From Rotaria magnacalcarata (Eukaryota), in assembly GCA_965140935.1 (NCBI GenBank), contig CBCSLL010000171.1:87492-144993 (forward strand): a DNA stretch of 57,502 nt, read 5' to 3'. The notes below the pieces were generated by a model, which was given only the letters and a program-made list of their open reading frames with translations, had not been told where the DNA came from and searched no databases. Both the position numbers and the translations under genes were made by a program. Of this stretch, positions 5,591-54,755 are shown in pieces (position 1 is the first letter of the stretch; every line of letters begins with the position of its first letter).

Positions 5591-5671
5591 GGGTGTGGCT
5601 GTGACTGTTTGGGTGAGTACATTTTGGTTTCTATTGCCATATCAACCCATCCCCACACCCACACCACACCC
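5591..5671. repeat. Telomeric-repeat-like hairpin H1 (degenerate): G-rich arm gggtgtggctgtgactgtttgggtgag and C-rich arm caacccatccccacacccacaccacaccc.
   Basis: Inverted G/T-rich then C/A-rich arms read directly; complementarity is imperfect. Confidence 0.5.
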
Positions 5672-6125
5672 TATATTATTTGAATTAAGTCAATGTTCAA
5701 TAGGCTCACTTTATTCGTCTCAGTGAGAGCTGCAAAGGCGGCAGTATGTGCTTATAATTTTAAGCACTATTTGCTATTTTTTCCGCTGTTTATCAACAAA
5801 TTGAAAGGACTGACTTATATCATTTTGTATGCCGGAAGACCACCAGTAAAATGACCCTGTTAGATTTATGTTCTATACAAGACCTAAAGATATTATTACG
5901 AACGCACACTAAATACAATACAAATACCAATCTGAGCTCTGATAAGGGTAGATTCATTGTGAGGATTGTGTGTTTTACCTAACCACAGAACTCACGGAAA
6001 CGTTCTGCAATACTCCTTTTTTCTCACAGAAGTTCTCATTGAAAATCACACTGGCGAGTTTCTTCTCATCAGTAGAGCTCAATAGAGAGACGAAAGCTAA
6101 AATTCAATATACAAACTCAACGTCA

Positions 6126-6748
6126 ATGTCAGTCATCGAGAGTAAGGCAGAAAGTTTCGTTCTAATCTGGCTGGATCAAACTATCAAGAAGAACAAAGAT
6201 ACTGTTGATTCTGAACAAAAACTTCGTGCTATTGTCAATTCACTAGTTACTTGCCATACAATTAATGAAGCCATGGATTTGATCGAACAAGTTCAGGATC
6301 AGCAAATTTATTTGATCGTATCTGGCAAACTTGGAAAGCAAATTCTTTCAATGAATCAAATCGTCGACTCTTCTAAATTGAATTCTATCTATATCTTTTG
6401 TGGTGATCAAAACGAAAACAAAGAATTACTTCAACTCTCCAATAAAGTACGCGCCATCTTCGTTGAAATCGATCCATTATGTGCTCGTTTGAAAGACGAT
6501 ACAGAACAAGCGTTGAAAAATCTTCTACCTATGTCTACTACATCAGGAACTTCAGCGGACGAAAAAAATCAAGTGAAATTTCTCTGTTCACAACTTCATC
6601 GTGATCTACTTTTCACTATGGAGTACAGTAATAATGCAAGACTGGAACTCGCTGACTTTTGCTCCAGTGTATACAAATTGAGTCCGACTCAACTCAAGTG
6701 CATCCAGGAATTGAAAACTGAATATCATGCTGGCAAAGCAATCTGGTG
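6126..6748 (+). CDS. Gene B exon 1: shared N-terminal alpha/beta domain (FVLIWLD...IYLIVSG...SIYIFCG), ending ...KAIWW.
   Basis: ATG at 6126 within ORF 5970..6752. The donor tg|GTAAGA at 6749 splits the second Trp codon. This exon is homologous to exon 1 of gene C and to genes A and D. Confidence 0.6.
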
Positions 6749-7073
6749 GTAAGATAAACTTTTGAATGCTTTCATCAAATACTATTCATGATAAGACCTC
6801 ATTGATGAACTGTGTATTTCCTTATTTTAATCCTAACATCCATTTTGTGAAAGGTCAACACTTAGAGACGAAATCCGATCACATAAAAACACTCGCAGCT
6901 TCCGCTTATTAGGACGTATCAAACAGAATTTAAGCATCGCAATGGTTAGAAACGTCCACATATGATGGGTATTGACCTGTTTGAATCTTAATAATTCAGT
7001 TTCATGATAAATGGCAGAGTTGATCTGTATTGAATTACCGGAAATAGATAGGCAAAGATTCTTTGTCTTTTAG

Positions 7074-9071: not shown

Positions 9072-9118
9072 AGGGTGTGGGTGTAGGTATTGCAATGACC
9101 CTGCACACCCACACCCTC
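9072..9118. repeat. Telomeric-repeat hairpin H2: agggtgtgggtgtagg - tattgcaatgac - cctgcacacccacaccctc.
   Basis: Near-perfect 17-19 nt inverted arms of (GGGTGT)n-type repeat with a 12-nt loop. Lies between the convergent 3' ends of genes B and D. Confidence 0.75.
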
Positions 9119-9517
9119 ATTTCTGACTGGTCATGTCGGCAGTCTCCCTTCATTTTTTGCTTACTTGGGTCGTCTATTCATTTTATCGGCCATATAGATT
9201 AACCTGATCGAAGACAACTCATATGACTTTAAGCATTTCTAGCTTCATCAGCAGCTGCAATCTCAAGCTTTGCAGCGCTAGGCCAGTAAAAGAGGAATTA
9301 ATTGCCACGTCTTGATAATCTTGTTATATCAGGTCACATTATCGACGAACGTCTGATTCTCTTGGCTTGAATTCAAAATTTTTATTATAATGGTACCTCA
9401 CAAGTCTTCTATTTCAACCGATAATGATGGATAGTTAATTTCAGAAGAACAGAAAACAACAAAAAAAACAAATTTCTATTTCTATATTTTGTCTATGTCT
9501 GCTGTTTTAAATATTTT

Positions 9518-11292: not shown

Positions 11293-14055
11293 TGATTTTG
11301 CTGGACATAATCAAATTAAATAAATTAGTCGCAGTGTTTGACGAACAACAGAAATGACTACTTTTGAAGATTTTATTTCGATTGGTTCTTAGGCACTCTA
11401 ACACTTCTCATTGGCTTATCATGAGCAAAGTATGGCATATGAGGGTGTATGGATGTGAAAAGAAGAAAGGCATGGGTGGTAATGACTCCCTACGTCTGAA
11501 ATATTCTATGCCAGTGCCACCCTCGTATTTTTAACACTCATGCATTTAGTCGCCGAATTATAACGCGTACCGATGCTACATTCACTGGGTGAGAACATAG
11601 GCACCTGTGAAAAGCATACTGAAACTCACACTATGTGAAACATGTGATGATAACTATTTTGAAATACCAATACTATATGTTGAATGACGCGCATCAAAAG
11701 CCGCTAGATTTTACGAATATTTTCGTATGATGTAAATATTTTCATTCTAATAAGTTCAGTTCTATGTATTGATACAGATCTCTTATGAAACACGATCTCG
11801 AATCGATATTGAGGAGAAAATCAGTAATATGGGTTCTACTTCTTTGCATATGCTGTCTCTTTGATAAACAATCCTTCTACAATTTAGAACTATTCTCATT
11901 TATTCTGTCTTCTGATGAAATAACGAAATGAATTTGTTCAGCAGATAATGACTTACGTAACCAATATAGTCTCTGCGTCTTACTAAACTATTCTTTTCTA
12001 TCCTACTGTATTTGATGCACGCATTATGCATGGCATTCTCTCTTATCTATTTTTTTCATTTGAGAAAATTCTCATTAGTCAACATTGCTTTGTAGTCAAC
12101 ATTTGGGTTTTTCGTACTCCATATCGCGTATACATTGCGTACACAAATTGGATCCAATCAATATAGAAATCAACAGCAAATCATAATCTGCTTATATTTC
12201 ATTGAATAACTGTTTATTCATGAAAACAGAATACGCTCATCGCTAGTGCAGCAGTGACGTTTTTGAGAAAATATACAATATTTTAGCAGTTAGTTTTCAC
12301 TAAATAAGGAAAATTCAAATGTATACGCTACTTGATTTATGACTTGTAAGTTGAACTGGATTAGTGTATAATGATTGTTTTAATTAAGGTTCACGGTATG
12401 CTCTTTATAATAAATCTGAAACAAAAGTATTATGTTGCTAACATTTATTAGACAGTCACACGAAGTTGTGTAAACCGTCTGGTATATATGCACGTTTTTT
12501 TTTTGTTTTCTATTAATGAACCTTACTACCATTACGGGCCTCAAGCTATATTTACCGATTCATCCTTTTAAATGCAAGTATTTCACTAAAGCTGATAAAA
12601 ATTAAAAAAGAACAATAGCAGATATAAGAACATGATACAAAAAGAAGAGGATGTATGTGATACACACTAAAGAAAAATTTGTCGCAAGATATAATGTCGC
12701 AGGCTCAATGACAAGAAATGTGTCATATTTAGAATGTATCGTACAGAAACGGAGAACTCACCCGATTACACTGCGTCACCTGGCCCCGGATGTGACGATT
12801 TTAGATAGAAGAGATGCCTGTGCTGATGGTATTACACTTTATTTAACTCTTCAAATCATAGATCGCATCGATTACATATAAAGCACACGCTTAAATACTC
12901 AACCATTTGAGAGAACGAAGAAGAAGGATAGATAAAGACAAATATAAAGGACAGAAAGATAGAGGCAATAGGTGTGATGAGAATAAATGGCACCATAAGA
13001 CCAAATATTATGTATAGGTTACACTCGAACGAGAGTATTACACTTCCGGATGGAATTTGGACGCTCTCCGCATATAACGTTACACCGGAGCACGACGAAA
13101 TGGTTTTAGATTGGACGAGCTGCTCACCACGGTCAGATCCTGGTTAAGATTTTCGGGTCGGCTCTAACAGAAAAACTGGAAATTTCCCACGTAAGTAATT
13201 TTAGCATCAGATTCGAGTATTTCCTGTCCGGATTCACCTGTAGAAACGTCAAGTAAATAGAGGGGTCTGTGCCAAAAATACCGATTTTAATTCTATGTAA
13301 ATATTTTGTAAAAACAATATATCTTGTGCGAATTCGCTTTTAGATCTGTGCTGATTCACTTCTTGGTTTTGCTGGATGCATAATTTTATTCTCTATCGAA
13401 TGATATGATATTTTGAATGGGGTCGTCGAGCAAAAATTGGGTGTTTCGGACGAAATATTGCCTGAGACCCATGTTTTTGGGTGGGAATCTGACTGTGGGT
13501 GTAAACGTAATTCGAGAGAAAAACATGTCGAAAATAAAGCTACCAGTCTATTACGGAGTGAAAATAGATTCAAATTGTTTCCGGGATCATCTATAATGAG
13601 TTGACATCCTCAGGTATAGTCGCACCCAGAATTACACCCCTGCCCTCACTGATATTGGCTCTAGTACTGAGGCTCCTATTATTCATTGATGTAGCGGAGA
13701 TGCGACATCATTTCGATGAAGAGACATGCAACAAAGTTTTATATAGTATGACGGCATCGAAATAAGCCAGCTGACAATTCAATAATCACAAGATATTTTT
13801 TCACATAGTGTTTCACGGGTTCTCTTAAGAAAATTTAGTATGTCGCTGTTTTTATTCTATCATCCCATCATGCCGTCACCTAGTGATTGAAAATAAATAA
13901 TCAAAGCAGTTCTTTAAAAAATACCTACTTTTCGAAGTAGGATGAAGAACGCCTACGCAAAACGAAATTCACAACTTTTTCTATAGAATTTCTGACGAAG
14001 TGAAGCATACATTGGTTTAGACTTTAGGGGTGGTCATTTAGTGTTACTTTACTAA

Positions 14056-14180
14056 ATAAAGATAAATGAATCGTTTATCTTTAGAAAATAAACATAAATG
14101 AATCGTTTATCTTTAGAAAATAAAGATAAATGATTCATTTATCTTTAAAAACTAGAGATAAAGGAATTATTTATCTTTAG
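14056..14180. repeat. Tandem repeat, ~3.5 copies of a ~36-bp unit that is itself palindromic (aaagataaatgaatcgtttatctttagaaaataaac).
   Basis: Read directly. Confidence 0.75.
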
Positions 14181-14439
14181 TTTTTAAAGCAAAAAACAAA
14201 GGAATAAATGATTTCTGTTTTCAAGCGATAATCGAGTCGAAATTATTCTAGAATTGTAGAACTCGTGTTCGGGAATATTCTTATCATTGGATCGATGTCC
14301 TTTGACTGAAAACAGGGACCTCTGAAGTGAAATCAACTTGTGCTGTTTTACTGGTATTTATGAGATTTTAGTTGGAAAAATGGAGATTAAATTAAAACTA
14401 ATAGCATATTCTGAATCAGCAATAAAAACGAAGCAAACC

Positions 14440-14730
14440 TATGTGACTTTCAAATATATTTTAGATAGTTATGATTTTATAAAAAAAAAATTCACCGCTA
14501 CTCCCCTTCAGCGTTTCTCAACCAAAACGCAGATCTTACGAAAACCACCATTTTAGTAGGTTAAACAGACTCCATTTTGCGCTCTACTAGCATTTTACGA
14601 GTGTAGTGCTTGTTGGTGCTCATCAAATTCAATTTTCCCTGAGATTCGCGTTTTGCAACCCCGAGGGGAGTAGGGGTGAATTTTTTGATAAAATCATAAC
14701 TATCTAAAATATATTCGAAAGTCACATAGG
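14440..14730. mobile_element. Small foldback: ~52-bp inverted arms (14440-14492 and 14678-14730) plus weaker internal symmetry. It is immediately followed by hairpin H3.
   Basis: tatgtgactttcaaatatattttagatagttatgattttat... matches the reverse complement of ...ataaaatcataactatctaaaatatattcgaaagtcacatagg. The mirror-image spurious ORFs 14338..14556(+) and 14561..14782(-) reflect the same symmetry. Confidence 0.7.
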
Positions 14731-14733
14731 TTT

Positions 14734-14813
14734 GGGTGTGGGTGTGGGTGTGAACTCTGCATATGGATGTTCGTTTATCCAACCGTCACAACCATACTGA
14801 CACCCACACCCGC
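14734..14813. repeat. Telomeric-repeat hairpin H3: (gggtgt)3g ... cacccacacccgc. It abuts the right end of a foldback element.
   Basis: tttgggtgtgggtgtgggtgtg at 14731-14752 is complementary to cacccacacccgc at 14801-14813. Confidence 0.65.
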
Positions 14814-15946
14814 AGGCTAATTAATAAGAAAATAAATGCGAGTCCTCAGTTTCATATTTTGTTTCCTTTTACTTCTTAAGAGGTGGCATTTTGTTTATTT
14901 AAAACTGTAGGATCAGCTAGAGTGTTGCTTAGGACTAAGTAACATAGTATCGCTTTGCCAGAAAAATGAGACCTACTCAAATACAAAGGTACGAATAAAT
15001 TTAAGCGTCATTGATGAAATCAGGATTATACATAGTAGGAAGGGAATTGACCCCTCTCACTTATGAAATACATGTTTGAAGAATCACACCAAGGGATGTT
15101 CACACGTCTTTGAGAAGAAGTGTCTTCCTGAACATCAAAATACTTGGTTCAAAAATTTTTCAAGGAGGGCTAGTATACATGCTATCCACTGGGACCGCTA
15201 CTGGTAGTTGTCCTCTTAACTTATATTTATCCATTTTGATAACGTCATGAATGAAAAACATTAAGGTCTACCAATTTCGTTTTTTTATAGGCAATTTGAG
15301 CAAAATAACAGAAATATCCTCGAATTCTAAGGAACTCCGTGGGACTCCAAGATGTTGGAGTCTGCCGTGTTTCTCTTTGTCGAACGGACAGAGCTGTCTC
15401 AATTTTTCAGAATTTCTACCTTAGCACTGTCACTTATTTATCAAATTAAAAACTCTTTTCGTCAAAGTGATCAGCAAAGAGAGCTTTACAAAGTCTGAAA
15501 GAAAAAACGAATTTCTGAAAACCTTTTATTTTCATGGCCACCTATAAACTATACAGTATAGTGAACACTTAAATGGGTCCTATCGTAGTGAATGTCTTAA
15601 ATATATCTTTATAGTTGTTCAAGCGCTACATTAAGATTCACATTCTTATGATTTTCATGATATTGGACAATTAGCGACGACGCTCATAATAAAATGCATT
15701 AACGTAGAGCTTCATGAAGTGTGAAAATTTCCATGGTATACCGACTATGTCATCAGCTTGTGCAATAACTCAACGTGCAGAACTGAAAAGAAATATATGA
15801 ACAACATTTGTCTACTCCTCATTTTTTCTCTTTTCCTTTGCATGGAGTAACGCTTAAACACATTAGTTATCACACGATTCTATGGAAAATAGATCATAAA
15901 ATGGATACTTTCGTAGATTGATTCATAAATCATTGATTATTTTAAG

Positions 15947-18900
15947 ATGAAACCAGCTACCACCTCTACTTCATTATTATCACCATTCAATGGCAAAACG
16001 ATTGTACTCGAACTTGGCCATGAAATAGGTTTCAAAGCTAAGCAGGAATTGATGAATTATTTACGAGAACAGCAAGCACATATTTCGTATATTTTGACAG
16101 CTAGTGTATGTTTACGTTTTATTTCATCGAACATGTGGTTGGAGTTAACTTTGTTTTAGACTGATTATGTTTTAGCTATGACTAATGTAGATAGCTACAA
16201 GATACGTCGTGCCAAACGGCTTGGCTTACCAGTGGTGAATGTTGAATATGTACACAAATGTCGTTGTTTGCTACCTGGTCAAACACCTATTGATATTAGC
16301 AAATTTATTATCAAGTCAGCAGAAGACCAAGAAAATTTTATAAAAACCGGCACTATTTCCATGGGAGGTATTAGAAGTTCTTATAAAAATCATGTCAGAC
16401 ATCCTTGTTCATTAGAAACTCGAGCAAACGTGACTAAAACAAATAAATTCGATTTGACTAAAATCAAACTGTGGAATTCGGACGACGTCAATTTGCCTCG
16501 TTTCGATGAGCTGACACATTGTGAGATTGGCAGATGGGCGATTTTCAAAGTAGATTTGTATTAATTTCTAGATATTATTCTCTTATATTTCTACTGTTCA
16601 TAACAGGAAACCAATGATAATTTAAGTGTGTTTTTTGTTCTTGAACTTCAAGTTATTCCCGAAGAGTACTACGATCGAACAACGAGTGATTATCAACTAC
16701 GATTTAGATATGAAAAACAGACTATTATTGGCGAAGTTTCACAGCACGATAAAAGAGTATTGGTACAATACGCATTCAGTGATGATCCAAACGAGCAACA
16801 ACAATTGTTTGCGTCGTTCTATTATCGTGTGGCTGCAATGCCACGTATAACACGAATTAATGAGATGTTACCTAACAAATTAGGGTCAAAATTATTATTA
16901 CGCGTATGTAAATGACATTGATAAAAAAGATAATTTATTTTTAAGCAAAGAAGAAATTGTTTTTAGTCTTTATTTACACAACGTATCGACACACAAATAC
17001 TCGATGAAAATGTATGTCAATTGATTGAATCGATTTGGTTAGAATCGATTGGTGATCTCAATAAAATTTTGAGCATATCACCTGAATCGATTACTCTCAG
17101 AACAGTATGTATACACATTCATCTGGCTACATTCATATTAGTTTGTGTTCTAAACAACCAAATAGATCATTGAGGCCGAAGCTGCACTGCTTGAAGTCAA
17201 ATCGACCAACAATCCTGCTGCTGCACTTCGTTTCTATTCATTTATACCACATCGACCAGAGTACAATATTGATCTGATCAAGAATCGCCGAGCGTTGATC
17301 GAAAAAATAGATCTATGTCAAGTATGTGTATTTCTTTTTGAATTGTTTTACTTGATCCGTTACGTGTTCAGATGCTTCGAGATATGCTTACAGTCAACGA
17401 ACTGACCAATTGGAATGTTAAAGCACCAATCGAAGCTAAATATCGAGCATTGAAATGTCATATTGAAACAGTAGCTAGTTCAACAATCGACTTTAGGAAT
17501 ATTGCTAAGCTCATTCAGTCGTCGACTAATAGGTGAGAAAATTTAACATTCTATTTCATAATGATAGCTTATTTGCTTTTTATTTATTAGTGGCGAAGAA
17601 ATTTTAATTCACAACATATTCAGTGTGACTAAACAGACAGATGCACTCAATTTTCGTAGAACACTATCCCACCAATGGCAGCTATTTCATGGATCGAAAT
17701 ACGTCAATATCCTTGGAATTCTTTCACGGTAAAATACTCATTTCGTTCTCTAGACAACATTTATATGGCGGTGGTGTGTGCATTCAGTGGTTTAGTCATG
17801 CCTAAAATTGTAGTGGAACAATTGGGTGTTGAACGTACTGATGTGGGTTGTCTTGGTTATGGGATCTATTTTTCTGATTCTGCGTCGACGTCTTTGAAAT
17901 ATACGACAGCAAGTGCAATACGATCAGGTCGTCGTTTGTTATGCATTTGTCAAGTAGCACTTGGTGAATCAGCCAATTACTATTCATTTTCGCCGACTCT
18001 CACCAAACCTCCTGATGGTTTTCATAGTACACATGGAGTCAAACGAACAGAAGAAAATCAATCAAAGTTCACTGTAACTGAAATTTTTACAAGGACTTAT
18101 TAACTATGATAATATTTCACAAATCTACTTTTTGTTCTATCGAAATAGGATAATGAATATGCAATCTATCAAGTTGAACAACAACGTTTACTTTATATTG
18201 TGGAAGTTTCATGGTCGCCGATTGATGCACCCAATATCACTTTAGAACGATTACCTATTGTTCACCATCAAGAACATGCATTGAAATTAAGTGAGCACGG
18301 TAATGATAAGCTATGCTTTCTTGCTGGAATAAAAAATTGACTAAATTTTTCTCAAAATATTCTAGCTGAAGTTCCATTAACGATGGAGGATGAAATCATT
18401 GAAGTAGCCGAAAGAGACTATGGTTTGATATGTTCATCATCGAGAGACCTGGTACCACTTAAATCATTTCATATTCGTGCTCAAATTGTTGATGTTACAG
18501 TTGAAGTAATTATATCTATGTTTCGATTGAAGTGAAACACTAATTCATCATGTTTCTATCTGATGAAAAGGTTGTTCTCTATCAAGTCTATCATAATACG
18601 AGTTCGATACCGATTGAAGCTAAGTATGTGTTTCCTCTTGATGAAAATTCAACTGTATGTGGTTTTGAAGCACATATTAACAATAAAGTTATCAAAGGTG
18701 TTGTTAAAGAGAAAGAACAAGCTAAATGAGAGTATAGAGAAGCAATTGAAAAGGGTCATGGCGCCTATTTAATGCATCAAGAAGAGGCTCAAGTGTTCAG
18801 CGTTGCGGTTGGTAATTTGCCAGCGCATACTGAAGTTATCATCAAAATAATCTATGTTGCCGAATTAGAAATTGAAAATGGTGACATTATTTTCCGCCTT

Positions 18901-21337: not shown

Positions 21338-21365
21338 ATCGAATTTAAAAAATGAATAGATATAA

Positions 21366-21775
21366 TGACCGAAATGATTAGTGCAACCGTAGAAGAACGA
21401 CAAGCATTACAGCAACAATGTCTAGAGAACAATTTAATAATCACAGATGGCGAGTTGTAAGTGAAAGAAAGGAAAGAAACATTTAACAATTATTTTGTGT
21501 ATTTTTTCTCTTGCAGTGAATCATTGGTTAAATACGATGGTAAGCAGGAAACTTAATCATTCTACTTCGGAAATCTTAAACAAGAGAAAGAAAGTGATTC
21601 TATAATTTAGACGAAAATTAAAAACTAAGAGCACGCTATTCTTCATCAAGGCAATTGACAAAAATAATTTCATGATTATTTTGGTTTCTGTATATCATAG
21701 CCTCTGAGCAATTTGATTAAGATATGACAGAGTAAAATATAGCTTTTCTATCCAACTTTTAATCTTAGACCTGTG

Positions 21776-21812
<37 letters not shown>

Positions 21813-24640: not shown

Positions 24641-25127
24641 ATCTGCTGTTTTCGGAAATTTGTATCGAGATTTCTTCTATTTTTTCTCTACAAGAAATGC
24701 GCCTATTATGTAATGCTTTACCTATTCATTGCCACAATGAACATTGGCTATCGGAAAGGAAGTAGTAGAGGCTTTTACATTCCGACTTTAGGCCATCACA
24801 TGGTTTTCTTTGAAAATTCTTCGAGTGAGAAATCAAACGTCAACATGGAAGTGACTAGCCGTGAATGGTGCTCCGAAAGAGCTCTGACAAAAAACTAGAT
24901 GCTTATCTATATAAATCATCACAGTTATGTTTCACATTGTGCAGTACCCTATAGAAAACTTACATCAGGGATACCCGAAAGTGATGGTGACACAGTAGAA
25001 CACTCTTATAGAAGGTTTTAAGAAATATTCTTCTTTCATTTGATGATAGAGAAAATGAAACTCTATTTTTCTATGCTGCTTTGTTCCTATTCGACTGGTG
25101 CCATAATAAAAAGATTTCGATAGAAAT

Positions 25128-25668: not shown

Positions 25669-25766
25669 GCGATTCCTGTTGAAATTTTATTACTATGATA
25701 TCAGTCGAATAGAGATGAAACGGCATAGAAAAACTTTTGTGTACCCCTAAGTATTATTCATTCTAG

Positions 25767-27627
<1,861 letters not shown>

Positions 27628-37348: not shown

Positions 37349-38628
37349 TAAGAGTCATTCTCTGTAGGAATTACGGCCTTTGAGAAGTGACCCACCTCAG
37401 AATTGTCTGAAAATTTCAGGGTATAGGTAAAAAGTTGTCCTGATTCTAAAAATATAATTTTTTTAAAGTTCTCATTGGGAAAAAGAAGTTATGGCTACTG
37501 GACCATGACCAAAATGAGTATATATCGATTTTTTAAAAATTGTCTAAAAATATTTTTGATATGTCAGAAATGTAGAGCTCATCAAGCTGATCATTTTTAC
37601 ATTGGCCATATCTTTCTAAACCTTAAGCTTCAAGCGCTAATTCGTCTCTAAAGTAGACAAATATTAAGAATTTCACCTGTTTCCTCATATTTCACCATTA
37701 AAACTCAGCATAAGTACTACTTATAATACATGGATTTAATCATCTGACTTCCAACTACACGCTCATGTGTTTACCGACTCTTCAAGCCTCTCCCTTCGAA
37801 AGCTATACCGCAAAGAACATCGAAAAAGTGGAAAATAACGCACAACCTTACACTTGTTTCGGATTTTTCTAAAAAGGTATCAAATCAATGACTTTCAATC
37901 TAACAGAATCTTGTTCAGAATAGTCAACTCTACCGGAAACTGTGATTTAACAATTTAGAAAAAAGCGTCAAAAAAAAGTTCCTTTTAATATGGTTAGATC
38001 ACAATATCCAGAAATATCGCTAAAATATTTTGTAAACCGTCGCATTAATTTTTACAAGAGTGGAATAAAAAACCATGTATCACAGATTGTAGCGCGCCAT
38101 TTCTACTATTAGGATCTGTGTTTAGTTTTGTTTCCACTGTTACTTTATGTGGAAAATGTTTGGTAACTTGGAAAAAAAGTGGTACAAAAATAGACAAATG
38201 AGCAAATAATTCACCTTTTACATAGTGAATAAATATTTTCAGTCCAAAACTGATAACGGATTCAGAATCTACGTAGAAATCTACGTGCATAGCGTTAGTC
38301 TCTTACTCACCCACACGTACAACTACCTAACAACTGATAGATGAAAGTGCTTTACACAAGAATATATTTACATGTGTCAAATTTTGTTTTGTGTTCTGTA
38401 CAATGTTTCTTTGCTCCTAGAAGTGTTGTAATGTCCACTGACGGTAGAATGGTCATGTGGGAGAGGAGAAGAAAAAGAGAAAATAGCCAAGTTTCTTGTC
38501 GTTCTGCACACAATTTGACGTTAGAAAGAAAAATGTGTTTTTCTTGAAAATCGTTTGTTTTTGAGGATAATATTATTCACTTTTCAAAATCTTTACAACT
38601 TCTGTTGTTAGTATAAATTATTTATAAT

Positions 38629-42728: not shown

Positions 42729-42789
42729 AAATGCTGTCTACTTTTTATTGGAGGATCATCACGATGATGAAGATGAAGAAGCTGCTCTT

Positions 42790-42878
42790 GAGGGTGTGGG
42801 TGTGGGTGTGACTAGATCGATACTCGCATTCCAGTCCCATATGCCACAAACCCACACTCATACCCACACCCACACCCC
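42790..42878. repeat. Telomeric-repeat hairpin H4: gagggtgtgggtgtgggtgtg - 48-bp core (actagatcgatactcgcattccagtcccatatgccacaaacccacac) - tcatacccacacccacacccc.
   Basis: Read directly. The internal core is shared with H6 at 48290-48366. Confidence 0.8.
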
Positions 42879-43262: not shown

Positions 43263-43336
43263 AGGGTGTGGGTGTCAGGGTGAGGGAGTCTTAATGAGAG
43301 ATTTGCATCCACTCGACACCCACACCCACACCTCAG
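43263..43336. repeat. Telomeric-repeat hairpin H5: agggtgtgggtgtcagggtgaggg ... cgacacccacacccacacctc.
   Basis: Inverted (GGGTGT)n/(ACACCC)n arms with a ~30-nt spacer. Confidence 0.7.
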
Positions 43337-44770: not shown

Positions 44771-44893
44771 ACAGGACTTAATTTTATTCATTCTATTTCG
44801 AGTTTCGAATATAAAATGTTTTTACGGTGTGTGTTTATCACTCGAAAAGATTAAATGTATGTTCACATCGAATTGCATATGAATGTAGACTGG

Positions 44894-44973
44894 GTCTCGA
44901 TAGCTTAGTTGATTAAAACGTCTGGCTAGTTACCAGAGTGGATACTACCTGGGTTCGATTCCCAGTCGAGGTT
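44894..44973 (+). tRNA. tRNA-like pol III gene with atypical features: an 11-nt variable region, a D-stem mismatch and G18-A19 in the D-loop. The anticodon loop is CTAGTTA, so the anticodon would be AGT (Thr) by position. It may be a diverged tRNA, a pseudogene or a tRNA-derived element.
   Basis: Acceptor GTCTCGA pairs with TCGAGGT (5 Watson-Crick + 2 G-U pairs). Anticodon stem TCTGG/CCAGA. T-arm CTGGG-TTCGATT-CCCAG gives a GGTTCGATTCC box-B-like element. The gene is followed directly by the T-rich run tcgTTTTcTTTTc at 44974-44986, consistent with a pol III terminator. Confidence 0.45.
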
Positions 44974-44986
44974 CGTTTTCTTTTCT
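44974..44986 (+). terminator. Oligo-T pol III terminator after the tRNA-like gene.
   Basis: TTTT then TTTT within 13 nt immediately 3' of the acceptor stem. Confidence 0.4.
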
Positions 44987-45410
44987 TTGTGTTCGTTCTT
45001 TCGTGTGATAAACACACGCCGTAAAAAATCATCTTTTATTCGAAATTCGAAACAGAATGAAACCGAAATTATTTTCAATGTTATATACTTAACAACGAGA
45101 CCTAGCTGCTAATCTACCTCGTTATTTTTATTCCGCTTTATTTAAAATAATGTAACAACGGTTTCAATGAGACCCCATTTAGAAAGCACTTATCCACCAG
45201 AAATGGACGGGTTTCAGGGAAATGGCCTGTAAAATTTGGCGATTTCTTCGTCTTTACGAGAAACCAGCTTTTCTTTTTAAAAGCATACCTCTGTGGGACT
45301 ATGGATAAGGTTCAAAGTGAAAACATTTCCACTCACACCCTCTAGTCGTGAATGGCTTGTTTTCTTTTGAACCATTTCTAGACTTTGAATTTGGAGGATT
45401 TTTTCTCTAA

Positions 45411-45943: not shown

Positions 45944-47869
45944 GTCAAGAAAGTTCATGGGATACTTGATCAATTATTAATGGAGCTTAGAGAAGACGTT
46001 CAAAATTATTCGAAATCTGTAAGAGGTGGCGTATCTAACACCCCGATGAAATCACAAAAAAGCACAGACGACAGTTTCGCCTGGTGCACAAGATTTTGTA
46101 ATATTTTGGTTCATCTGCCCTTTCCTCAAACTTGTCACGATAGACTTGTAAATTTCTTGAAAAACTATTATAAGAACAACGAAGTAGAATTGAAATATGT
46201 AGAAGAATTTCACCGTGACTACACACCAAAGCAAGCAATCTGGTGGTATACACGTGAAACATTTATTTATCGCATGCTTAACGCTGCCCTACGTCAATGC
46301 GACATTAAAACCATCGTTCTATTTGGGTTTTTCATTCAAGATGTATATCATCAATTGAAAGAAGAACATAAAAAGTTCCTACTTTTATACCCAAAAGATT
46401 CGATCATAAAATGTTATCGTGGGCAAGTAATGTCGTATCAAGAACTCCGCCAACTAGACTTCCAAGATGGAGGACCAAAAACAATCGTGAACACCAGTTT
46501 ATTTTCAACATCAATAAATCGCGATGTACCGTTCCGTTTTCTGTCTAATGTAATCAATCTACAACAGTTGGAATATGTCATTTTTGAAATTGAAGTCGAT
46601 ACTCGTTTGCAAACTCGACCCTTTGCTGATATTTCACATTTGAGTGCTTGCTCAGACGAATCTGAAATATTATTTATGATCGGCGCATGGCTTCTTATCG
46701 AAAGAAATGGTGTTTCGTACTCGTATGAAGACAATAAGAAAATTTGGACTATTAAGTCCACCCTAACCAACGACTGGCAACTGAAATACGAGCAATATCT
46801 CGAAATGACGACACAAAAGGAACATTTACAAAAGTGTCTCCGTAGAATATCTTTGCACATTTATCATGCGACACCCAATGACGTAGAGGTGGCTTTCAAC
46901 GAACTACTTGATTTATATCCGTCTGAAAGATGGATTTTAGCACTGAAGAAAGAAAGTCTTGGTGATAATCAAAGCGAAATAAGCCATAACCGTTCAGCCG
47001 CTTTAGAATATTATCAAAAAGCATTAGAAATCTGGTCTGAATACGTTAACGATGATGAATTGAATGCCGATTATGATATTGTTCGTATCTATTGGAAAAT
47101 TGCCACAAATAATGCAGATTCCATAATGGCTATGAAGTACAGTGATTTAGCCATTGTGCATAGCCAACCGGCGTTCGCAAAAGTTAGCACGAATTACGAA
47201 CGATATAGGTTACATGGATGGATGGCTGTTATATATAAAGAAAAAGCAAACATTAGCACTGGGGACAGCGAGAAATCAGAAAATTTGCTAGCGACCATCA
47301 AATACACCGAATTACAACTAAACAATCTGATCGAGTTGCAATGTACCACAGCGGTTGGCAACTATGACAATCTCACTGCTCTTTGTTACATAGAGTTAGG
47401 TGCCCTTTATCAATCCGTATTGAAATATAACGAAGCAATAACAAACTATGGAAAGGCTCTGGAATTTGAGCTGGCGAAGCTAGACCCTGATTATGAGAGA
47501 ATCGATCAACTTACTAGGGAATTAGTTGAAATTTACAGTGAAAAGAAAAATGATTATAATGCCGCATTTAAGTATGAATCATTAAACCATGAGTATTTAT
47601 TAAAACAATACATGGCAAATCCAACAAAGGATTATCTTCGCGAAGCCAATAGGAACTATACACTAGCCTGTAGTTACGCTGCCTTAGCTACGATTTGTCG
47701 GAAAATGCAGCGATATGATTTAGCGGCTGAAAATTTAACCAAAACAATCGAATCATATGGGAACAGTTTGCACTATGATAGGTACGCATTAATGTCAGCC
47801 CACGAAGATGATTTGATGGAAATAAACAAATTGTTAGCATCATCGAAGTCTGCAGAACCAACATCATAA
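45944..47869 (+). CDS. Gene C exon 2: arginine-type ADP-ribosyltransferase domain with an intact R/STS/ExE triad, followed by TPR repeats.
   Basis: Acceptor cacacAG at 45942-43. Motifs read AIWWYTRETFIYRMLNAAL, CYRGQ, SLFSTSINRD, RPFADISHLS and SDESEILF. TPR-like helices run across the C-terminal 330 aa (…SAALEYYQKALEIWSEY…LGALYQSVLKYNEAITNYGKALEFE…). Stop at 47867-47869. Confidence 0.8.
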   Translation, partial: VKKVHGILDQLLMELREDVQNYSKSVRGGVSNTPMKSQKSTDDSFAWCTRFCNILVHLPFPQTCHDRLVNFLKNYYKNNEVELKYVEEFHRDYTPKQAIWWYTRETFIYRMLNAALRQCDIKTIVLFGFFIQDVYHQLKEEHKKFLLLYPKDSIIKCYRGQVMSYQELRQLDFQDGGPKTIVNTSLFSTSINRDVPFRFLSNVINLQQLEYVIFEIEVDTRLQTRPFADISHLSACSDESEILFMIGAWLLIERNGVSYSYEDNKKIWTIKSTLTNDWQLKYEQYLEMTTQKEHLQKCLRRISLHIYHATPNDVEVAFNELLDLYPSERWILALKKESLGDNQSEISHNRSAALEYYQKALEIWSEYVNDDELNADYDIVRIYWKIATNNADSIMAMKYSDLAIVHSQPAFAKVSTNYERYRLHGWMAVIYKEKANISTGDSEKSENLLATIKYTELQLNNLIELQCTTAVGNYDNLTALCYIELGALYQSVLKYNEAITNYGKALEFELAKLDPDYERIDQLTRELVEIYSEKKNDYNAAFKYESLNHEYLLKQYMANPTKDYLREANRNYTLACSYAALATICRKMQRYDLAAENLTKTIESYGNSLHYDRYALMSAHEDDLMEINKLLASSKSAEPTS

Positions 47870-48289
47870 ACGACGAAGACGGGGTCAATCTAAAACAGAC
47901 TAAGCCTCCCAGGTGAATGAATCCGACAACGGATCTTATCGAATTCTATTCCACGTCGTCTATAACGATTGAATAACGGCGTTATTGCGCCGCTATTGCG
48001 ATCGCACTGTTACCCCTTTTAGCGTTTATAAGTTCCAGTTCCAGCTAAAAGGGCTTCCAGAAATAGTTTTTTTCAAATTCCAATTTATTTCGAAAAAAGA
48101 ATTCGAATTAATCGAAAGCAAAACTATATTAGAATTTATTTTCCGAATTATTATTTTTACAGCAACATCGTTAATAAAATATTTATCTCATAAATGGGAC
48201 TAATTTGAGATTTGTGGCTGCTACAGGCGGCTCAGGCACATCGATATTATCAGAGTGCATCGAATTCAAAACGATTCTGCCGATTTTAA

Positions 48290-48366
48290 GGGTGTGGGTG
48301 TGACTAGATCGATACTCGCATTCCAGTCCCATATGCCACAAACCCACACCCACACCCACACCCATG
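48290..48366. repeat. Telomeric-repeat hairpin H6: a near-identical copy of H4 (same 48-bp core) with a different repeat number in the arms.
   Basis: agggtgtgggtgtg-actagatcgatactcgcattccagtcccatatgccacaaacccacac-ccacacccacacccatg. Confidence 0.8.
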
Positions 48367-48677: not shown

Positions 48678-49127
48678 CCAAGATCTATGTAAGTATGAGT
48701 CCAACGACATTTGTTCATGGTCAAACTCTTGATGAGTTTCGAGAAAAACGAAAACAAATGCTAGAAAATAGGTGTACTACGACACATTGGAGTACAGAAT
48801 TGGTTTTATCACGTAAGGGGTTCTTTTTTTGATGAAACATAATCTTGATATAACTTTTATCTCAAATTCTTTTCAGTTGGCAATCATACTGACCTACCTA
48901 AATTATCATTGGATAAGTTCGATGTCTATCAAAAAGCTTTAATTTTTGGTACCAACGACGAGAATGATTTTTGTCTTCCATAATTATAAACTATATCTAA
49001 TAAAAATTCGGAATTTTTCAATATAAATTTTATAGCTCGTCAATAATTTTGATCGATTAATGATTTCAAACTCAAACTAGAATTGATTTAGTAGAAATGA
49101 AAGCACTAAGACCAATCATAGATCTTG

Positions 49128-49186
49128 ACGGTGTGGGTGTCGGATAGTGTGCCAACTGCTATTATTGTCCATCCCCACACCCGTCA
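49128..49186. repeat. Telomeric-repeat hairpin H7: gacggtgtgggtgtcgg ... ccatccccacacccgtc. It directly abuts a 150-bp direct repeat.
   Basis: The inverted arms include the gacgg/ccgtc termini. Confidence 0.65.
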
Positions 49187-49335
49187 AATAATAGCTTCAC
49201 TAATCGATTTATTTAATTCAAATTCCTGGAAAGGTTTACCTGAATTAACAAATGCAAATAGAAAATTTTGTCCTTATTCATGTTTTATTCATTGTTGTTC
49301 TTGCGCAACTATTTTAAAAGCTTTTATATTCTATT
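49186..49335. repeat. Direct repeat copy 1 (~150 bp, ~90% identical to 51718-51865). It begins right at the end of hairpin H7.
   Basis: gtcaaataatagcttcactaatcgatttattta...aaattttgtccttattcatgtt...tgcgcaactattttaaaagc versus caaataatagcttcactaatcgatttatttattta...aaattttgtccttattcatgtt...tgtgcaactgttttagaagc. Confidence 0.75.
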
Positions 49336-50070
49336 TAGAATGTAATAATGGGTTGCTTATAACATCAGCATTTTTACACTAAATGTTAAAGTCTTTTCTA
49401 CTTGTTTAGAAGAATTAAATCTAATGTATCATCTAGCTGTATCTGAATTTTCAGTACTGGTATGTGATTTATATTAACACTATAATAATAGTGACATTGT
49501 ACTGCGACGTATATCACCAACTCATTCCGAATATGAAATGGTTGATGAACATACAATTCTCAAAGCACCACAGTAAATAAAGTTTCGATTCATTTTGCTG
49601 GTGCGCCTTTTAATTTAAATATAAAAATAATATCTATTTCGAAGTAGTTTTTCAAAAGTATCTGGTTTGTTGGTTTAGTATCTCTAATATTTTTCTCGAA
49701 CAATATTCGTTTGAGAACTCCAGTAAGTAATTTAAAATGATAGAAAAATTGACTGTTCTCCTTATACAACATCTGACAGCTACCGTTATCTATCGCATGA
49801 AACTTACGCTTTTTAGAAAAAAGTAATATAATTTAAAAATGTGTTGGCCTACTATAATTCCCGTCAGTTCTTTTTCGCGAGAAAAACATTGAAAAAAAAA
49901 GAAAATACTTTCATTAGTGGATTTCGACACCGATTGGAATTTGCTATGGCTTTTATCACTAGCTCGCACACACACTACTAGTAGTACCATATTAAAAATA
50001 CAAAACGTTGTTTGTGAGTGTCGTGTACTCGCGGTCTCATTTCTTTCTTTTGCAGTTGAACCATCATAGT

Positions 50071-51465: not shown

Positions 51466-51717
51466 TGTTTTTTTTTGTAAGTTTTTCCTAAAAAGTCATC
51501 TTGTATTTACTTCATTAGATGAGATATTTCAATAAAGTCATATTTAAAGGTTATACATTCTTGACTATATATTCTCTTTTTAAGTATTTTCTCATTATCT
51601 ATTATCATAATGGTTCTAAATGGATATGGTTAACTGGTCATTATTCAAGAGCAAAACTTTATTGGTAAAAAAAGCAAGATGATTGAATTATTCAAAACAA
51701 ACAATAAAACATGTTCG

Positions 51718-51865
51718 TCAAATAATAGCTTCACTAATCGATTTATTTATTTATTTCAAATTCCTGGAAATGTTTACCCGTATTAACAAATGCAGATAGA
51801 AAATTTTGTCCTTATTCATGTTTCATTCATTGTTGCTCTTGTGCAACTGTTTTAGAAGCTTTGTA
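51718..51865. repeat. Direct repeat copy 2. The pair brackets the 4-exon gene at 50071-51465.
   Basis: See copy 1. Confidence 0.75.
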
Positions 51866-53683
51866 TGATCTTATAAAAGCGTAAAACTTTATATTTTGAT
51901 TTTATTTAATAAAAACAAATTCTTATTGCAATTTTAATGTTAATTCCATTTTTTTCTTATTAAGTAAAAATTCGAAGTTATAGTAAAAAACAAATAAGTT
52001 CTAAGTTGTGATTAAATATTTATAAAGAAAAATATTTTTTGCTAAGTTGCCTTATTTATTTATGCTTATAATTGATTTTGTTAATAATACTACTTTTAAG
52101 TTTGTCTCTTTTGTTCGAAAATTTCCATTGTTTTATAGTTTCAGTTTTTTTTTTGTTCGAAAAGTCGTGCTAAGATATAAAAAAAACATTGACTTTTTGC
52201 AGCCTGTTCTGTTCTACTTGGTCAATAGAGCAACACAGAGCATAGTATGCTGTTCAATTAAACCTTATCTTTATCGTAATTTTCAATCTTTTTCAAAACA
52301 ATCTTTTATGAAATTCACGTACATTTTTAAAGAAAGATATAGTGCACAACTTTGAAAGTTCGATTTTCGACTCTCTTTCTCTTTTCTGTTACAGAAAGTA
52401 ACCAATTATTACTTGGAAACTATTAACTCATGAAAAGAAAGATTTTGAAAACAAAAGGAGACCCTAGTAAATATGGGGAAAAGTTTTTTAGCAGTGTAGA
52501 AATAAATTAGAAGGATTTTTTCTCTGGTGATCAATTAATTTAGCTTTGCTTCGAGGAAATGTTTTTTCATCTTACGCATTTTTTTCTATCTATCGAGGTT
52601 AAAAATATATTAGTGAAGTCCACATTTTTGCTCCAAACGGGCTGCGCTAAAATTTCTTTTTCATTCTATGATAGCAGATTGGTTTATTTGAGTTTCATTT
52701 TAGATGATATTAAATGAAATAGAGTGCTGCAAATATCAGCTTTACTGGAGAGTTTCAATTGAGAAAGAGTATTTTTGAAAATTTATATGAAGTTGATTTT
52801 ATATGACATAAATCATCTACAATGTGATCCAAAACAAATTAAAAGAAAGTATCTATTAAGTTTTGATAATATTGGAAGTAACTTGTAATATTCAAAAGAA
52901 CATCAACAGATCACCGATAATTGTTTTTGAGTTATTATTTTCACAATAAATTTTGAAGTTCTCTCGTAATAAAATATTTAATAATTAATCAACAACAGAT
53001 AAATTTAAAGGATTTGAAGCCAAATGGCTGTTGGAATACCATGAATTTGATCATAATAAAATACAAAAGCACACATTTTATTTTGTTGATGTATCTTCAA
53101 CTTTTTTGACATTTTCTTATGAAGCTGAATTTTGAAAGACATGAAAATTAATATTGATAAGATAAACGTGAGGTGTTGTTTACGAGCACATTGTTTTAAT
53201 ACATAGAATCGATTTCGATGTAATAAAAGTAAATATTAGATGGTGTTAAGTCACTAGTAAATTACAGCTATTGGAAAACTAGTCAAATTCGATGTGAGTT
53301 TTATTTCGTATGTATATGAAAGTTTGGGACAGTGGATTATTTTATTTGTAATTGTGATAGATAACAAATATAAGGTAATGAAAAGAAGAAAGACAAATAT
53401 AATCTCAGTATGTTGAAAAACGAAGCAGAAAATGGAGAAGAATCATCTATCGGTGCCATTAGTTTTCACGGGTTGATTTTCTATGAATCGAGTTAAGTTG
53501 ATAATAAATGAGTTTCTACTCTATTCACTTCAACACTAATTTTAGATTGTGTTCTATTAAAAAATCTATACGCCACTGGTTTTCACAGAACTCGATCTAT
53601 GAACTCAGTACTTTTTTCGTGAGCTGACCCCAGTAAACAGTATTTTTTCAGATGGACTTAGTCTTCTCATTGAAGATGTGGGT

Positions 53684-53722
53684 GTCCATCTAATCCCTCT
53701 TCATACCCACACCCACACCCTG
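53684..53722. repeat. Telomeric-repeat hairpin H8: gatgtgggtgtccatc ... catacccacacccacaccctg.
   Basis: Short inverted GGGTGT/ACACCC arms. Confidence 0.55.
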
Positions 53723-54688
53723 TTTTTATTTTAAGATTAGTTAAATTTAATTCTAAATGATTAATAAATTTTTGTAATAGATCATTTGAAAGTTTTGTTT
53801 TAACATCAAAATACTTTTGTTGATGACGAACAACAAATAAACTGACAATATTCAATAGATAAATTTGAATGAAAATTATTATTTATTGGTGATTCACATT
53901 CAATTCAACGTTTTATTAATAGATATTGTTTATCGAAAAAAATTATATTGACTTATAGAATTTAAATTAATTAAATAATTTCTCGTCGTATCTCATCCTC
54001 GTCAGTACATAATTTTTGTTGTAGAAAACATATTTTTGAATTCAAAATGAAATGACTGATCTGTCTTATTTACTCGCTAGTTTTGAATTGACGATCACAC
54101 GAGAATATATATCTTTGAAAAATATGTCATAAAATAGATCAACCAGTATATTTATAGATAAATTTATGTTTATAATTTTACAGGAGAACAATATGCAGCA
54201 ATTCTACAAAGGATAAAACTAATGTGGTTTAATGGCTATTCATTGTATATCTCATACAGACAATGAAACAAAGAATATAAAGGTCTATTGGTAGATACGT
54301 TGACTAACAAAAATAGACAAATGTTTCATTTCATCTCATGAGCCATATGTGTATTCGTTCTATTTCAACAATCGATTCGATGCATTACTAAATACTGTTT
54401 CTAACTGAATAAAAATAGTTTATGTTTTCTCATGAATACACAATGCTTCGTAATTTTCTTTATACCAACTAGTAAAAAGACTAAGAAAATTCAAGCCTCA
54501 TAAGGTATCGGAAATTCAAAAGCACAGTAAGAAAATAGATTTCGTTGAATTATATACGATTCGATAGAGCTCGCGAAAGCACTGTCCGATCGGAATCTCA
54601 AATATTTGCACATTTACTGTGGCTATTTCTTCGTCATAATATTCTACCTTGATTCAGCATCAAATATTTGCTTGGCTGGCCAGCTCTT

Positions 54689-54755
54689 GAGGGTGTGGGT
54701 GTGTGGCTGTTGATGGTGCTGCAGCTCTGAATGACCACCCACACCCACACCCTCA
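54689..54755. repeat. Telomeric-repeat hairpin H9: cttgagggtgtgggtgtgtggctg ... ccacccacacccacaccctcaag.
   Basis: The 20+ nt inverted arms include the cttgaggg terminus, which is also present at H4. Confidence 0.75.

Follow-up and report, generated by a model that had tools for sequence, protein, structure and literature searches.

Nine short hairpins in the window, by which we mean the whole 57,502-nt stretch of Rotaria magnacalcarata DNA analysed here, are most likely repair scars that mark old breaks and rearrangements. They share a single architecture, in which a G-rich arm of GGGTGT units, a spacer and a C-rich arm of ACACCC units follow one another, their arms have a fixed polarity, and wherever a junction could be polarised (about five junctions only) a hairpin sits at the break. 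From these features we infer that a reverse transcriptase (telomerase or that of Athena/Terminon elements) extended both ends of a double-strand break, copying about 20 nt of an RNA template before the ends were joined; this account of enzyme, template and joining step we favour by a small measure. Bdelloid rotifers are textbook survivors of massive chromosome breakage, genome reshuffling and foreign gene uptake.

The preliminary description had proposed nine elements of the form (GGGTGT)n–spacer–(ACACCC)n, all of which were recovered at the same positions or within a few bases of them (Table 1); the G-arm of e8 spans positions 53675-53686, and the start of 53684 given earlier truncates it. 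The identification of TGTGGG as the bdelloid telomere repeat holds, and the interstitial runs of TGTGGG in the window match the telomeric hexamer of the species. With at most one mismatch, GGGTGTGGGTGT occurs 24 times on the two strands of the window, compared to 0.02 occurrences expected from shuffles. Each strong telomere-like tract in the window is a G-arm with a C-arm 14-47 nt further on; isolated telomere-like matches of 10-12 nt are weak and near chance level. Re-alignment confirmed the complementarity of the arms, which extends over 19 of 19 nt in e9, 20 nt at 95% in e4 and 19 nt at 84% in e3, and folding z-scores between -3.1 and -5.5 were obtained for seven of the nine elements, with weaker values for e1 and e8. 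In e4, e7 and e9, the palindrome runs 5-6 nt past the telomeric repeats (TCTTGA/TCAAGA). Repeat numbers of the two arms can be unequal within one element (two versus four in e6), and the four G-runs that an intramolecular quadruplex would require are present in only some of the G-arms, e.g., that of e5. The hexamer register of e1 is still discernible, which would be consistent with an older copy.

Table 1. Hairpin elements and associated features of the window.
Feature	Position	Strand	Description	Folding z-score
e1, decayed hairpin	5589..5671	.	G-arm GGGTGT GGCTGT GACTGT...; spacer ~47 nt; C-arm CCCCACACCCACACCACACCC	-1.7
e2	9072..9119	.	two GGGTGT units; 14-20-nt spacer; CACACCCACACCC + TCA	-3.9
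TIR element, 300 bp	14434..14733	.	74-nt terminal inverted repeats, 92% identity (CAAACCTATGTGAC...); right terminus is the last base preceding e3	
e3	14733..14814	.	three GGGTGT units, GAACT..., 45-nt spacer, GACACCCACACCC; left end adjoins TIR element terminus	
e4	42786..42878	.	TCTTGA + three GGGTGT units; 43-nt spacer; C-arm with two C>T changes	-4.8
e5	43263..43336	.	two GGGTGT units + CAGGGTGAGGGAG; spacer; three ACACCC units	
e6	48289..48365	.	two GGGTGT units; 43-nt spacer; four ACACCC units (five in two other assemblies)	
e7	49122..49187	.	ATCTTGAC + GGTGTGGGTGT; spacer; CCCCACACC + CGTCAA	
Duplication copy A (150-bp duplication)	49182..49327	+	copy B at 51716-51866	
812-bp stretch	51814..52625	.	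in R. socialis a 47-nt hairpin GAGGGTGTGGGTGTTCATCTTCCGACACCCCCACACCCTCAAGATAG instead (L076 11717-11765)	
e8	53675..53722	.	short G-arm (GATGTGGGTGT); 16-nt spacer; three ACACCC units	-1.9
e9, cleanest copy	54685..54758	.	perfect 19-nt arms TCTTGAGGGTGTGGGTGTG / CACACCCACACCCTCAAGA; 36-nt spacer	-5.5

Beyond the window, R. socialis has similar elements, and so do about 45 low-GC metagenome contigs, whose bdelloid origin is assumed and of which only one shows protein similarity to reference loci. An assembly artefact can be ruled out, as e4-e8 are identical across seven R. magnacalcarata assemblies from different individuals, the C-arm of e6 differing in length by one hexamer. The intergenic location originally given for all nine elements was confirmed for e4-e9 by the gene calls of four NCBI assemblies, while e1-e3 were judged by long ORFs only and lie outside them. 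The element e2 is sited between two convergent ART/TPR genes and e4 lies 213 nt 3' of the stop codon of a gene. Introner-type introns with GT..AG-like ends (GAGG/GTGTGG ... TCAAG/) were considered and rejected: the elements lie outside called genes, the flanking frames are stop-rich, and the “AG” is part of the constant TCAAGAT motif.

As had been noted before, all nine elements of the window are G-first. Among pairs that were not selected by the search pattern, the ratio of G-first to C-first is 14:1, and the sole C-first case is the gap between two neighboring hairpins; viral contigs, used as an orientation control, gave zero matches in either orientation. Extension of 3' ends yields only the G-first orientation, which therefore fits the capping of each end of a break. 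Inverted telomeric repeats at interstitial positions are also a feature of the telomere-bearing transposons of ciliates (TBE1 of Oxytricha and Tel-1 of Tetrahymena). There, however, the repeats form the outer ends of a kilobase-sized transposon and are C-first on the top strand, as they would be in a free linear molecule; this orientation is opposite to that of the hairpins described here.

Comparison with R. socialis links the hairpins to breaks. A hairpin of this species (contig L076) stands in place of 812 bp of R. magnacalcarata sequence and is not accompanied by a target-site duplication. The 812-bp state is ancestral, because the match between copies A and B of the 150-bp duplication extends 53 nt beyond the junction. 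The left edge of copy A, in turn, is cut exactly by e7, and e7 also marks a synteny break at which R. socialis has uninterrupted sequence with different DNA upstream. A second, partial hairpin is found where R. socialis homology stops (L076 12015-12056). Furthermore, e3 begins at the first base past the terminus of the TIR element, so that the suggested marking of TE-insertion junctions applies to this one element. In three of the seven assemblies, the sequence switches to unrelated DNA at most 10 nt from the right end of e8; this polymorphism, a haplotype rearrangement, starts as far as 10 nt from the arm and may thus have arisen later. Candidate microhomology to the presumed template is seen at the only three informative junctions, namely CTT (3 nt) at the left junction of the L076 hairpin, TTGA at the right junction of e7 and TTG at the junction of e3 with the TIR element. 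The CGTCAA at the right junction of e7 is ancestral flank, and its similarity to the constant motif is read as microhomology. No clean empty sites were found, the polarised cases being replacements or rearrangements, and intergenic sequences of the more distant contigs L006, L081, L082, L083, and L085 are too diverged to polarise e1-e6 and e9.

The two elements that can be compared are lineage-specific: e7 is absent from R. socialis, and the L076 hairpin is absent from R. magnacalcarata. In addition, a 16.5-kb block (window 15750-32308) that is syntenic with two other bdelloid contigs contains zero hairpins, and all nine lie in its non-syntenic flanks. This distribution bears on the proposal that the hairpins are selected for a function, for example as terminators or 3'-end signals, small-RNA precursors, insulators or break-and-heal sites resembling the SFE of Oscheius tipulae. 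Their stable folding and the location of several of them a few hundred bases 3' of genes would agree with such roles, and by analogy to the SFE palindrome, cutting the spacer would produce two ends, each with a telomere seed in the correct orientation. Against this stand the positions not conserved between the sister species, the absence of hairpins from the conserved gene block and the unconstrained spacers and arm lengths. Searches against Rfam families, including hammerhead ribozymes, gave no match and only generic hairpin scores below 60% of the gathering score, and likewise, no curated microRNA precursor family was matched beyond generic hairpin scores. A selected function is therefore given very little credence.

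The arms themselves have a directional structure. Immediately outside the repeats, the motif (C)ATCTTGA is found at 12 or more independent ends, which include ends of R. magnacalcarata and R. socialis elements as well as ends from unrelated metagenome contigs, and CCCTCAAGA is carried by about 25 ends. The arms begin at GGG, and in 57 of 100 ends, compared to 33 expected, the last perfectly periodic bases are GGGTGT or GGGTGTG; past the arms, the continuations GTGA(G/C)T and GTGTCGG recur. Judged from the sequence, the arms thus read like cDNA made inward from each break, with the constant (C)ATCTTGA outermost and whole GGGTGT units following. Fold-back copying of the flank was rejected as a source of the TCTTGA/TCAAGA bases: unrelated loci, as well as other species, share this motif, which is therefore templated rather than local.

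This polarity modifies the initial interpretation of the elements as miniature head-to-head telomere junctions. Its essence stands, in view of the junction evidence and of the G-first orientation expected from 3'-end extension. Yet it is not mature telomeres that were fused, as the outside of each element is formed by perfect repeats and a constant, non-telomeric motif and its center by degenerate sequence, the polarity to be expected of de novo addition from each break end. End-to-end fusion of chromosome ends or of telomere-capped linear fragments, followed by shrinkage of the arrays, would also produce G-first pairs, and it would match the gene-sized cassettes separated by hairpins, the few metagenome elements that have long arms (up to 8 units) and almost no spacer, and the abundance of telomeric repeats in rearranged, gene-family-rich bdelloid regions. 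A natural array, however, is most degenerate at its base and regular at the point of fusion, the reverse of what is seen here, and most arms consist of two units, the length of one template pass. Mature fusion is accordingly considered very unlikely.

The spacers of the approximately 46 distinct elements are unrelated to one another, which speaks for independent origins. They showed no matches to nearby DNA, hence copying from neighboring DNA is not indicated. In the window, all spacers are unique with the exception of those of e4 and e6, which are identical over 43 nt at two sites with unrelated flanks. To explain this identity, a further round of copying is needed; for example, an existing hairpin may have served as the template of a repair, or a hairpin may have been duplicated when the 5.4-kb segment between the two was inserted. 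The identity is also one of the arguments for a family of miniature inverted-repeat or foldback transposons with the terminal inverted repeat ATCTTGAGGGTGTGGGTGT that moves as units, as e4 and e6 would represent the same element at two sites. Terminal inverted repeats are indeed present, with constant termini extending 7 nt beyond the telomeric repeats, and the elements are dense, several of them lying near each other in one contig (L037). On the other hand, nine window copies carry eight different spacers and the full set about 46, no target-site duplication was found at any copy with complete termini, and the single hairpin whose ancestral site is known took the place of 812 bp rather than inserting. 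Arm lengths are unequal, termini are variably truncated, and no transposase-bearing partner was seen. The MITE-like or foldback family envisaged in the preliminary description is thus not supported, and we regard it as rather improbable.

The repair model that we prefer would begin with a chromosomal double-strand break that leaves two 3' ends, sometimes with the loss of hundreds of bases or at a cut transposon end. A reverse transcriptase would then extend each 3' end on a short RNA template of the approximate sequence ~5'-..(A[C/G]UC)ACACCCACACCCUCAAGAU(G/A)..-3', priming being achieved where the break end shares a few bases of microhomology with the UCAAGAU region. From the break inward, the predicted product would consist of a partial or complete (C)ATCTTGA followed by two to four whole GGGTGT units. 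Two ends capped in this way could not anneal, because both tails are G/T-rich; they would instead be end-joined, and filler, degenerate repeats or a copied spacer would make up the middle. The top strand would always read G-arm, spacer, C-arm. The ability to form a hairpin is, in this model, a by-product, and the elements may secondarily be fragile sites.

Besides the shared spacer of e4 and e6, other observations weigh against this model. The constant terminal motif equally resembles the terminal inverted repeat of a transposon, and independent capping of ends predicts that one-sided scars should be common, as they are in mammals, whereas the strong tracts of the window are nearly all paired. 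The near-universal pairing hints at a concerted process. It is conceivable, though we would put it no higher than a tentative suggestion, that bdelloids routinely “cap and join” their free ends, each of which would be capped with about 20 nt, reverse-transcribed in a single pass, before being ligated head-to-head. No bdelloid telomerase RNA was found in the literature that could be searched. One candidate in a metagenome contig (L071, 1310-1490), which carries CACACCCTCAAGATAGT and a terminal T-run, gained no support: it contains a single repeat, its fold is unremarkable and Rfam gave no match.

The template could alternatively be Athena/Terminon RNA, with both ends priming on its C-rich 3' tail (twin priming) and the two cDNAs being joined head-to-head. 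This would be the usual inverted arrangement of Penelope-like elements at extreme 5' truncation. Terminon tails consist of (ACACCC)n or (TCACCC)n, and reverse transcription is primed by their pairing with G-rich 3' ends (PMC6431247), and GGGTGA/TCACCC variant units are frequent within and beside the arms. Penelope-like reverse transcriptases often yield inverted, palindrome-centered structures, a study of Adineta vaga reported Athena fragments at deletion breakpoints (PMC13564844), and different element families could account for the two recurring inner motifs, GA(G/C)T and CGG. However, in Terminons the C-rich tail directly follows the hammerhead motif, and spacers should therefore start with the complement of this motif; searches with Rfam detected no hammerhead, the thresholds being E<=10 for the window and E<=1 for 20 other loci. 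Nor are the spacer halves mutual reverse complements, e.g., in e9. While Terminon insertions have direct repeats around kilobases of element, the repeats described here are inverted and enclose neither a hammerhead nor an element body. This origin of the arms, which would predict a ..ACACCCTCAAGAT tail at the 3' ends of Rotaria Athena/Terminon elements, appears unlikely, if still deserving of attention. A hammerhead with the arms as helix I was likewise dismissed after no Rfam matches were obtained and no CUGANGA/GAAA core was recognized by eye.

The closest counterparts of the proposed scars are telomerase-made insertions at mammalian break sites, which show microhomology and copied template-adjacent bases (Nergadze et al. 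2007, PMC2246262). Like the short ITS and TERC-ITS of primates and rodents, the hairpins comprise a few telomeric hexamers at what would be a double-strand-break repair site, are lineage-specific with respect to an orthologous “empty” locus, and are associated with a modified break site (PMC2246262), in this case without target-site duplication and with 812 bp replaced in R. socialis. The mammalian loci carry copied template-adjacent bases just outside the repeats, and the constant (C)ATCTTGA of the hairpins may have a like origin. In contrast to the single tract in one orientation of mammalian ITS, two inverted tracts with a non-telomeric spacer are found here, so that both ends were extended, and one-sided tracts, present in mammals, are nearly absent. 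Because the tracts always form an inverted pair, we class the elements as a variant and not as a member of this group; with slightly more confidence than doubt, they can be regarded by analogy as a paired-inverted variant of the mammalian telomerase-made interstitial insertions.

In bdelloids, telomeric repeats, Athena fragments and neotelomere signatures have been reported at deletion breakpoints of A. vaga (PMC13564844), and short telomeric stretches in subtelomeres (PMC2861651; PMC8494291). As far as the accessible parts of these reports go, they concern the same repeat in the same animal class and tie it to breaks and to rearranged, gene-family-rich regions, but their subject is repeat density and the occurrence of repeats at ends that are unrepaired or clipped; hairpins of paired, inverted repeats that have a constant outer motif and lie at healed junctions do not appear in those parts. 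The SFE of O. tipulae is also a degenerate palindrome with G-first telomere seeds in both halves, in which a central break gives two healable ends (PMC13060919). It is, however, a 29-bp protein-recognised motif at 12 fixed sites that was shown to be cut (PMC13060919). The hairpins have the geometry of the SFE; their positions turn over between sister species, which argues against programmed break sites.

A short, searchable motif that marks healed breaks would allow ancient and recent junctions to be mapped in any bdelloid assembly, and it would enable a direct test of neotelomere formation as a repair intermediate, as proposed for A. vaga in 2026. The bases that flank the repeats are constant and provide a probe for the template RNA. 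If capping and joining take place as suggested, the (C)ATCTTGA and GA(G/C)T bases would reveal the template region of the bdelloid telomerase RNA, and G-first hairpins across the genome would record past breaks, rearrangements and perhaps the capture of foreign DNA in datable form. The motif would also permit comparisons between species, chromosome regions, and desiccating and non-desiccating lineages; R. magnacalcarata is obligately aquatic.

All nine elements of the preliminary description (e1 to e9, from left to right) were recovered in the window, each composed of a GGGTGT-type G-arm, a spacer and an ACACCC-type C-arm. The 12-mer GGGTGTGGGTGT occurs 24 times with at most one mismatch, where 0.02 occurrences are expected, and every strong telomere-like tract lies in a G-arm that is followed by a C-arm 14-47 nt further on, one-sided tracts being almost absent. 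The arms are complementary, as had been claimed (19 of 19 nt in e9; 20 nt at 95% in e4), folding z-scores range from -3.1 to -5.5 in seven of the nine elements, and the palindromes of e4, e7 and e9 exceed the telomeric repeats by 5-6 nt. Element e8 is present, though its G-arm starts at 53675 and not at 53684. The reported exclusive G-first orientation, in which the G-arm precedes the C-arm on the top strand, is also seen in pairs outside the search-pattern selection (14 G-first vs. one C-first), the single C-first case being the gap that separates two adjacent hairpins.

An origin as assembly artefacts is contradicted by the identity of e4-e8 in seven assemblies from different individuals (the window and the R. 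magnacalcarata contigs L002-L005, L080, and L084), with a one-hexamer difference in the C-arm of e6. Nor are such elements unique to this stretch, as comparable ones are present in R. socialis. A scan of JGI metagenomes yielded 69 loci, about 45 of which are low-GC contigs, possibly bdelloid, sharing the architecture; the remaining loci are G+C-rich bacterial palindromes or belong to one conserved, unrelated family. The G+C-rich matches (51-69%; L007, L012, L013, L017, L026, L027, L035, L036, L053, L061, L065, and L067) are apparently bacterial, and their repeats are embedded in perfect palindromes of greater length, which resemble REP or terminator sequences and have no relation to the rotifer elements. 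The conserved family is a G-first hairpin, GGGTGTGGGTGTGTCGAGGTCAGTAATGAGTGACCGAAGGGAACGAATTGCTGTCCAAGACACACCCACACCC, found with 85-100% identical flanks in many freshwater samples; in contrast to the rotifer elements, it corresponds to one conserved locus in one organism. Tight clustering of elements is possible, since the metagenome contig L037 carries three to four such hairpins inside 520 bp (288-807).

Wherever a junction could be polarised, the hairpin was located at a break. In R. socialis (contig L076), the sequence downstream of the PARP/DUF3990 gene is ...TTTTGTCCTT / GAGGGTGTGGGTGTTCATCTTCCGACACCCCCACACCCTCAAGATAG / TTTTGCTCC..., and between the same flanks 812 bp (51814-52625) are present in R. 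magnacalcarata. Both Rotaria species carry a 150-bp sequence twice, once on either side of this gene (copy A, 49182-49327; copy B, 51716-51866). As copy B still matches copy A 53 nt past the junction, the 812-bp state is ancestral. The left edge of copy A is truncated exactly by e7, and at the e7 site the R. socialis sequence is uninterrupted, with no hairpin and with different upstream DNA. A second, partial hairpin (L076 12015-12056) forms the end point of R. socialis homology. The suggestion that elements mark transposon junctions holds for e3, whose first base follows directly on the end of a 300-bp element that has 74-nt inverted repeats. In L003, L080, and L084, unrelated sequence containing more hairpins begins at most 10 nt from the right end of e8; in one of these hairpins the outer motif is GTCTTGAAGG and the C-arm is strongly degenerate. 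Collinearity with two other bdelloid contigs extends over 15750-32308; this block lacks hairpins in all three sequences, and each of the nine elements lies outside it. Not every indel here has a hairpin, since the edges of a 344-bp indel relative to R. socialis (49414-49756) are without telomeric repeats.

Table. Additional hairpins and inverted-repeat features (window positions unless a contig is named).
Feature	Location	Remarks
73-nt conserved hairpin GGGTGTGGGTGTGTCGAGGTCAGTAATGAGTGACCGAAGGGAACGAATTGCTGTCCAAGACACACCCACACCC	L028, L039-L041, L046, L054, L056, L068, L073, L074	metagenome, 39-43% G+C
Hairpins in alternative arrangement right of e8	L080 17130-17230, 18261-18333; L003 22103-22200	two more hairpins, three assemblies
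300-bp element, 74-nt terminal inverted repeats, 92% identity	14434-14733	directly left of e3
A+T-rich palindrome nest, ~30-nt unit TTTATCTTTAGAAAATAAA...	14044-14194	250 bp left of 14434-14733 element, separate
Inverted repeat pair, 364 bp, 97.5%	26042-26405 / 26766-27129
Inverted repeat pair, 297 bp, 99.3%	36219-36515 / 37055-37351	at L002 rearrangement site

The ends of the elements are constant beyond the telomeric repeats. Many independent ends share a non-telomeric motif that adjoins the repeats directly, (C)ATCTTGA ahead of the G-arm or its equivalent TCAAGAT(G/A) after the C-arm, with the full motif at at least 12 ends, CCCTCAAGA at about 25 and truncated forms at further ones; its sources are R. 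magnacalcarata (e4, e7 and both ends of e9), R. socialis and eight unrelated metagenome contigs. In the R. socialis L076 hairpin, CTT within the left motif belongs to ancestral flank, as does TTGA at the right junction of e7, and both would represent microhomology at the join. Inward of the motif, the arms consist of whole GGGTGT units, and the two arms of an element differ in how many they contain. Perfect periodicity ends after GGGTGT or GGGTGTG at 57 of 100 ends (33 expected), with GTGA(G/C)T and GTGTCGG as recurrent continuations. Deeper inside, the left half is G/T-rich and the right half C/A-rich, both degenerate. The regular, templated part is therefore outermost and the irregular part central, which is the opposite of fused mature telomeres and would be expected for synthesis inward from each break end. 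The junctions support the earlier idea of head-to-head telomere junctions in its essence, though not as a fusion of mature telomeres, the polarity being reversed.

An ordinary MITE or foldback transposon family, as had also been suggested, does not account for the elements. When the elements, with 150 nt of flank on each side and repeats masked, were compared all against all, interiors were common only to repeatedly sampled copies of the same locus and to the e4/e6 pair, and no target-site duplication was found at any copy. Comparison of the spacers with neighboring DNA revealed no copied source. Rfam searches of the elements at gathering and permissive thresholds gave no family match and no hammerhead, the longer hairpins reaching generic microRNA-like stem scores far below threshold. 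Elements e4 and e6 have an identical 43-nt spacer in unrelated flanks and border a 5.4-kb segment with e5, a tRNA-Thr gene and an ART/TPR gene; either repair that used an existing hairpin as its template or a doubling of the hairpin at segment insertion would produce this identity.

In the favoured mechanism, a reverse transcriptase would extend both 3' ends of a break on a short RNA template segment (..ACACCCACACCCUCAAGAU..), often in one pass of copying that yields two units, and the two capped ends would then be joined. The enzyme could equally be telomerase or that of the Athena/Terminon retroelements. The tails of Terminons consist of (ACACCC)n or (TCACCC)n (PMC6431247), and variant units of the TCACCC type are frequent near the arms, but the hammerhead preceding Terminon tails was not found in the spacers. 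The non-hairpin metagenome locus L071 1310-1490 (Ga0116226_10030921) contains CACACCCTCAAGATAGT, which over 17 nt is identical to the R. socialis hairpin at its right end and is followed after about 150 nt by a run of seven T; as a candidate template RNA gene it is unsupported, with a single repeat, an unremarkable fold and no match in Rfam.

Reverse-transcriptase capping at breaks followed by joining was already proposed for mammalian interstitial telomeric insertions, which likewise show microhomology as well as bases that neighbor the template in telomerase (PMC2246262). In Adineta vaga, deletion breakpoints were recently reported to carry telomeric repeats and fragments of Athena, read there as transient neotelomeres leaving “scars” (PMC13564844), and the cap-and-join explanation fits this account. 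No description of a paired-inverted, constant-ended element was found in the searchable literature. The present elements would be a variant of break-site telomeric insertions and of bdelloid neotelomeres. TGTGGG is the accepted telomere repeat of bdelloids, and R. magnacalcarata is obligately aquatic and non-desiccating.

Several other inverted-repeat structures occur nearby. A polymorphic insertion at 50934, in the coding ORF of the PARP/DUF3990 gene, is present in L002 (15532-16111) and L003 (15593-15840) and absent from the window; with inverted termini of about 120 nt (GGAGGGGGGACACTTTGTACAC...) around a middle given as N in both contigs, it resembles a DNA transposon of the foldback/TIR type. 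The 364-bp and 297-bp inverted repeat pairs, each enclosing 360-540 bp, are probably further TIR/foldback elements. The window has a G+C content of 34%, and its genes comprise ART/TPR family members, one that is vault-PARP-like and further rotifer genes. A Rotaria magnacalcarata protein at NCBI matches the 629-aa ORF at 45980-47869 with 100% identity. The sole above-threshold Rfam match is a tRNA-Thr(AGT) gene (44894-44974), which is enclosed by a 61-bp inverted repeat of 87% identity (44787-44847 / 44999-45061).
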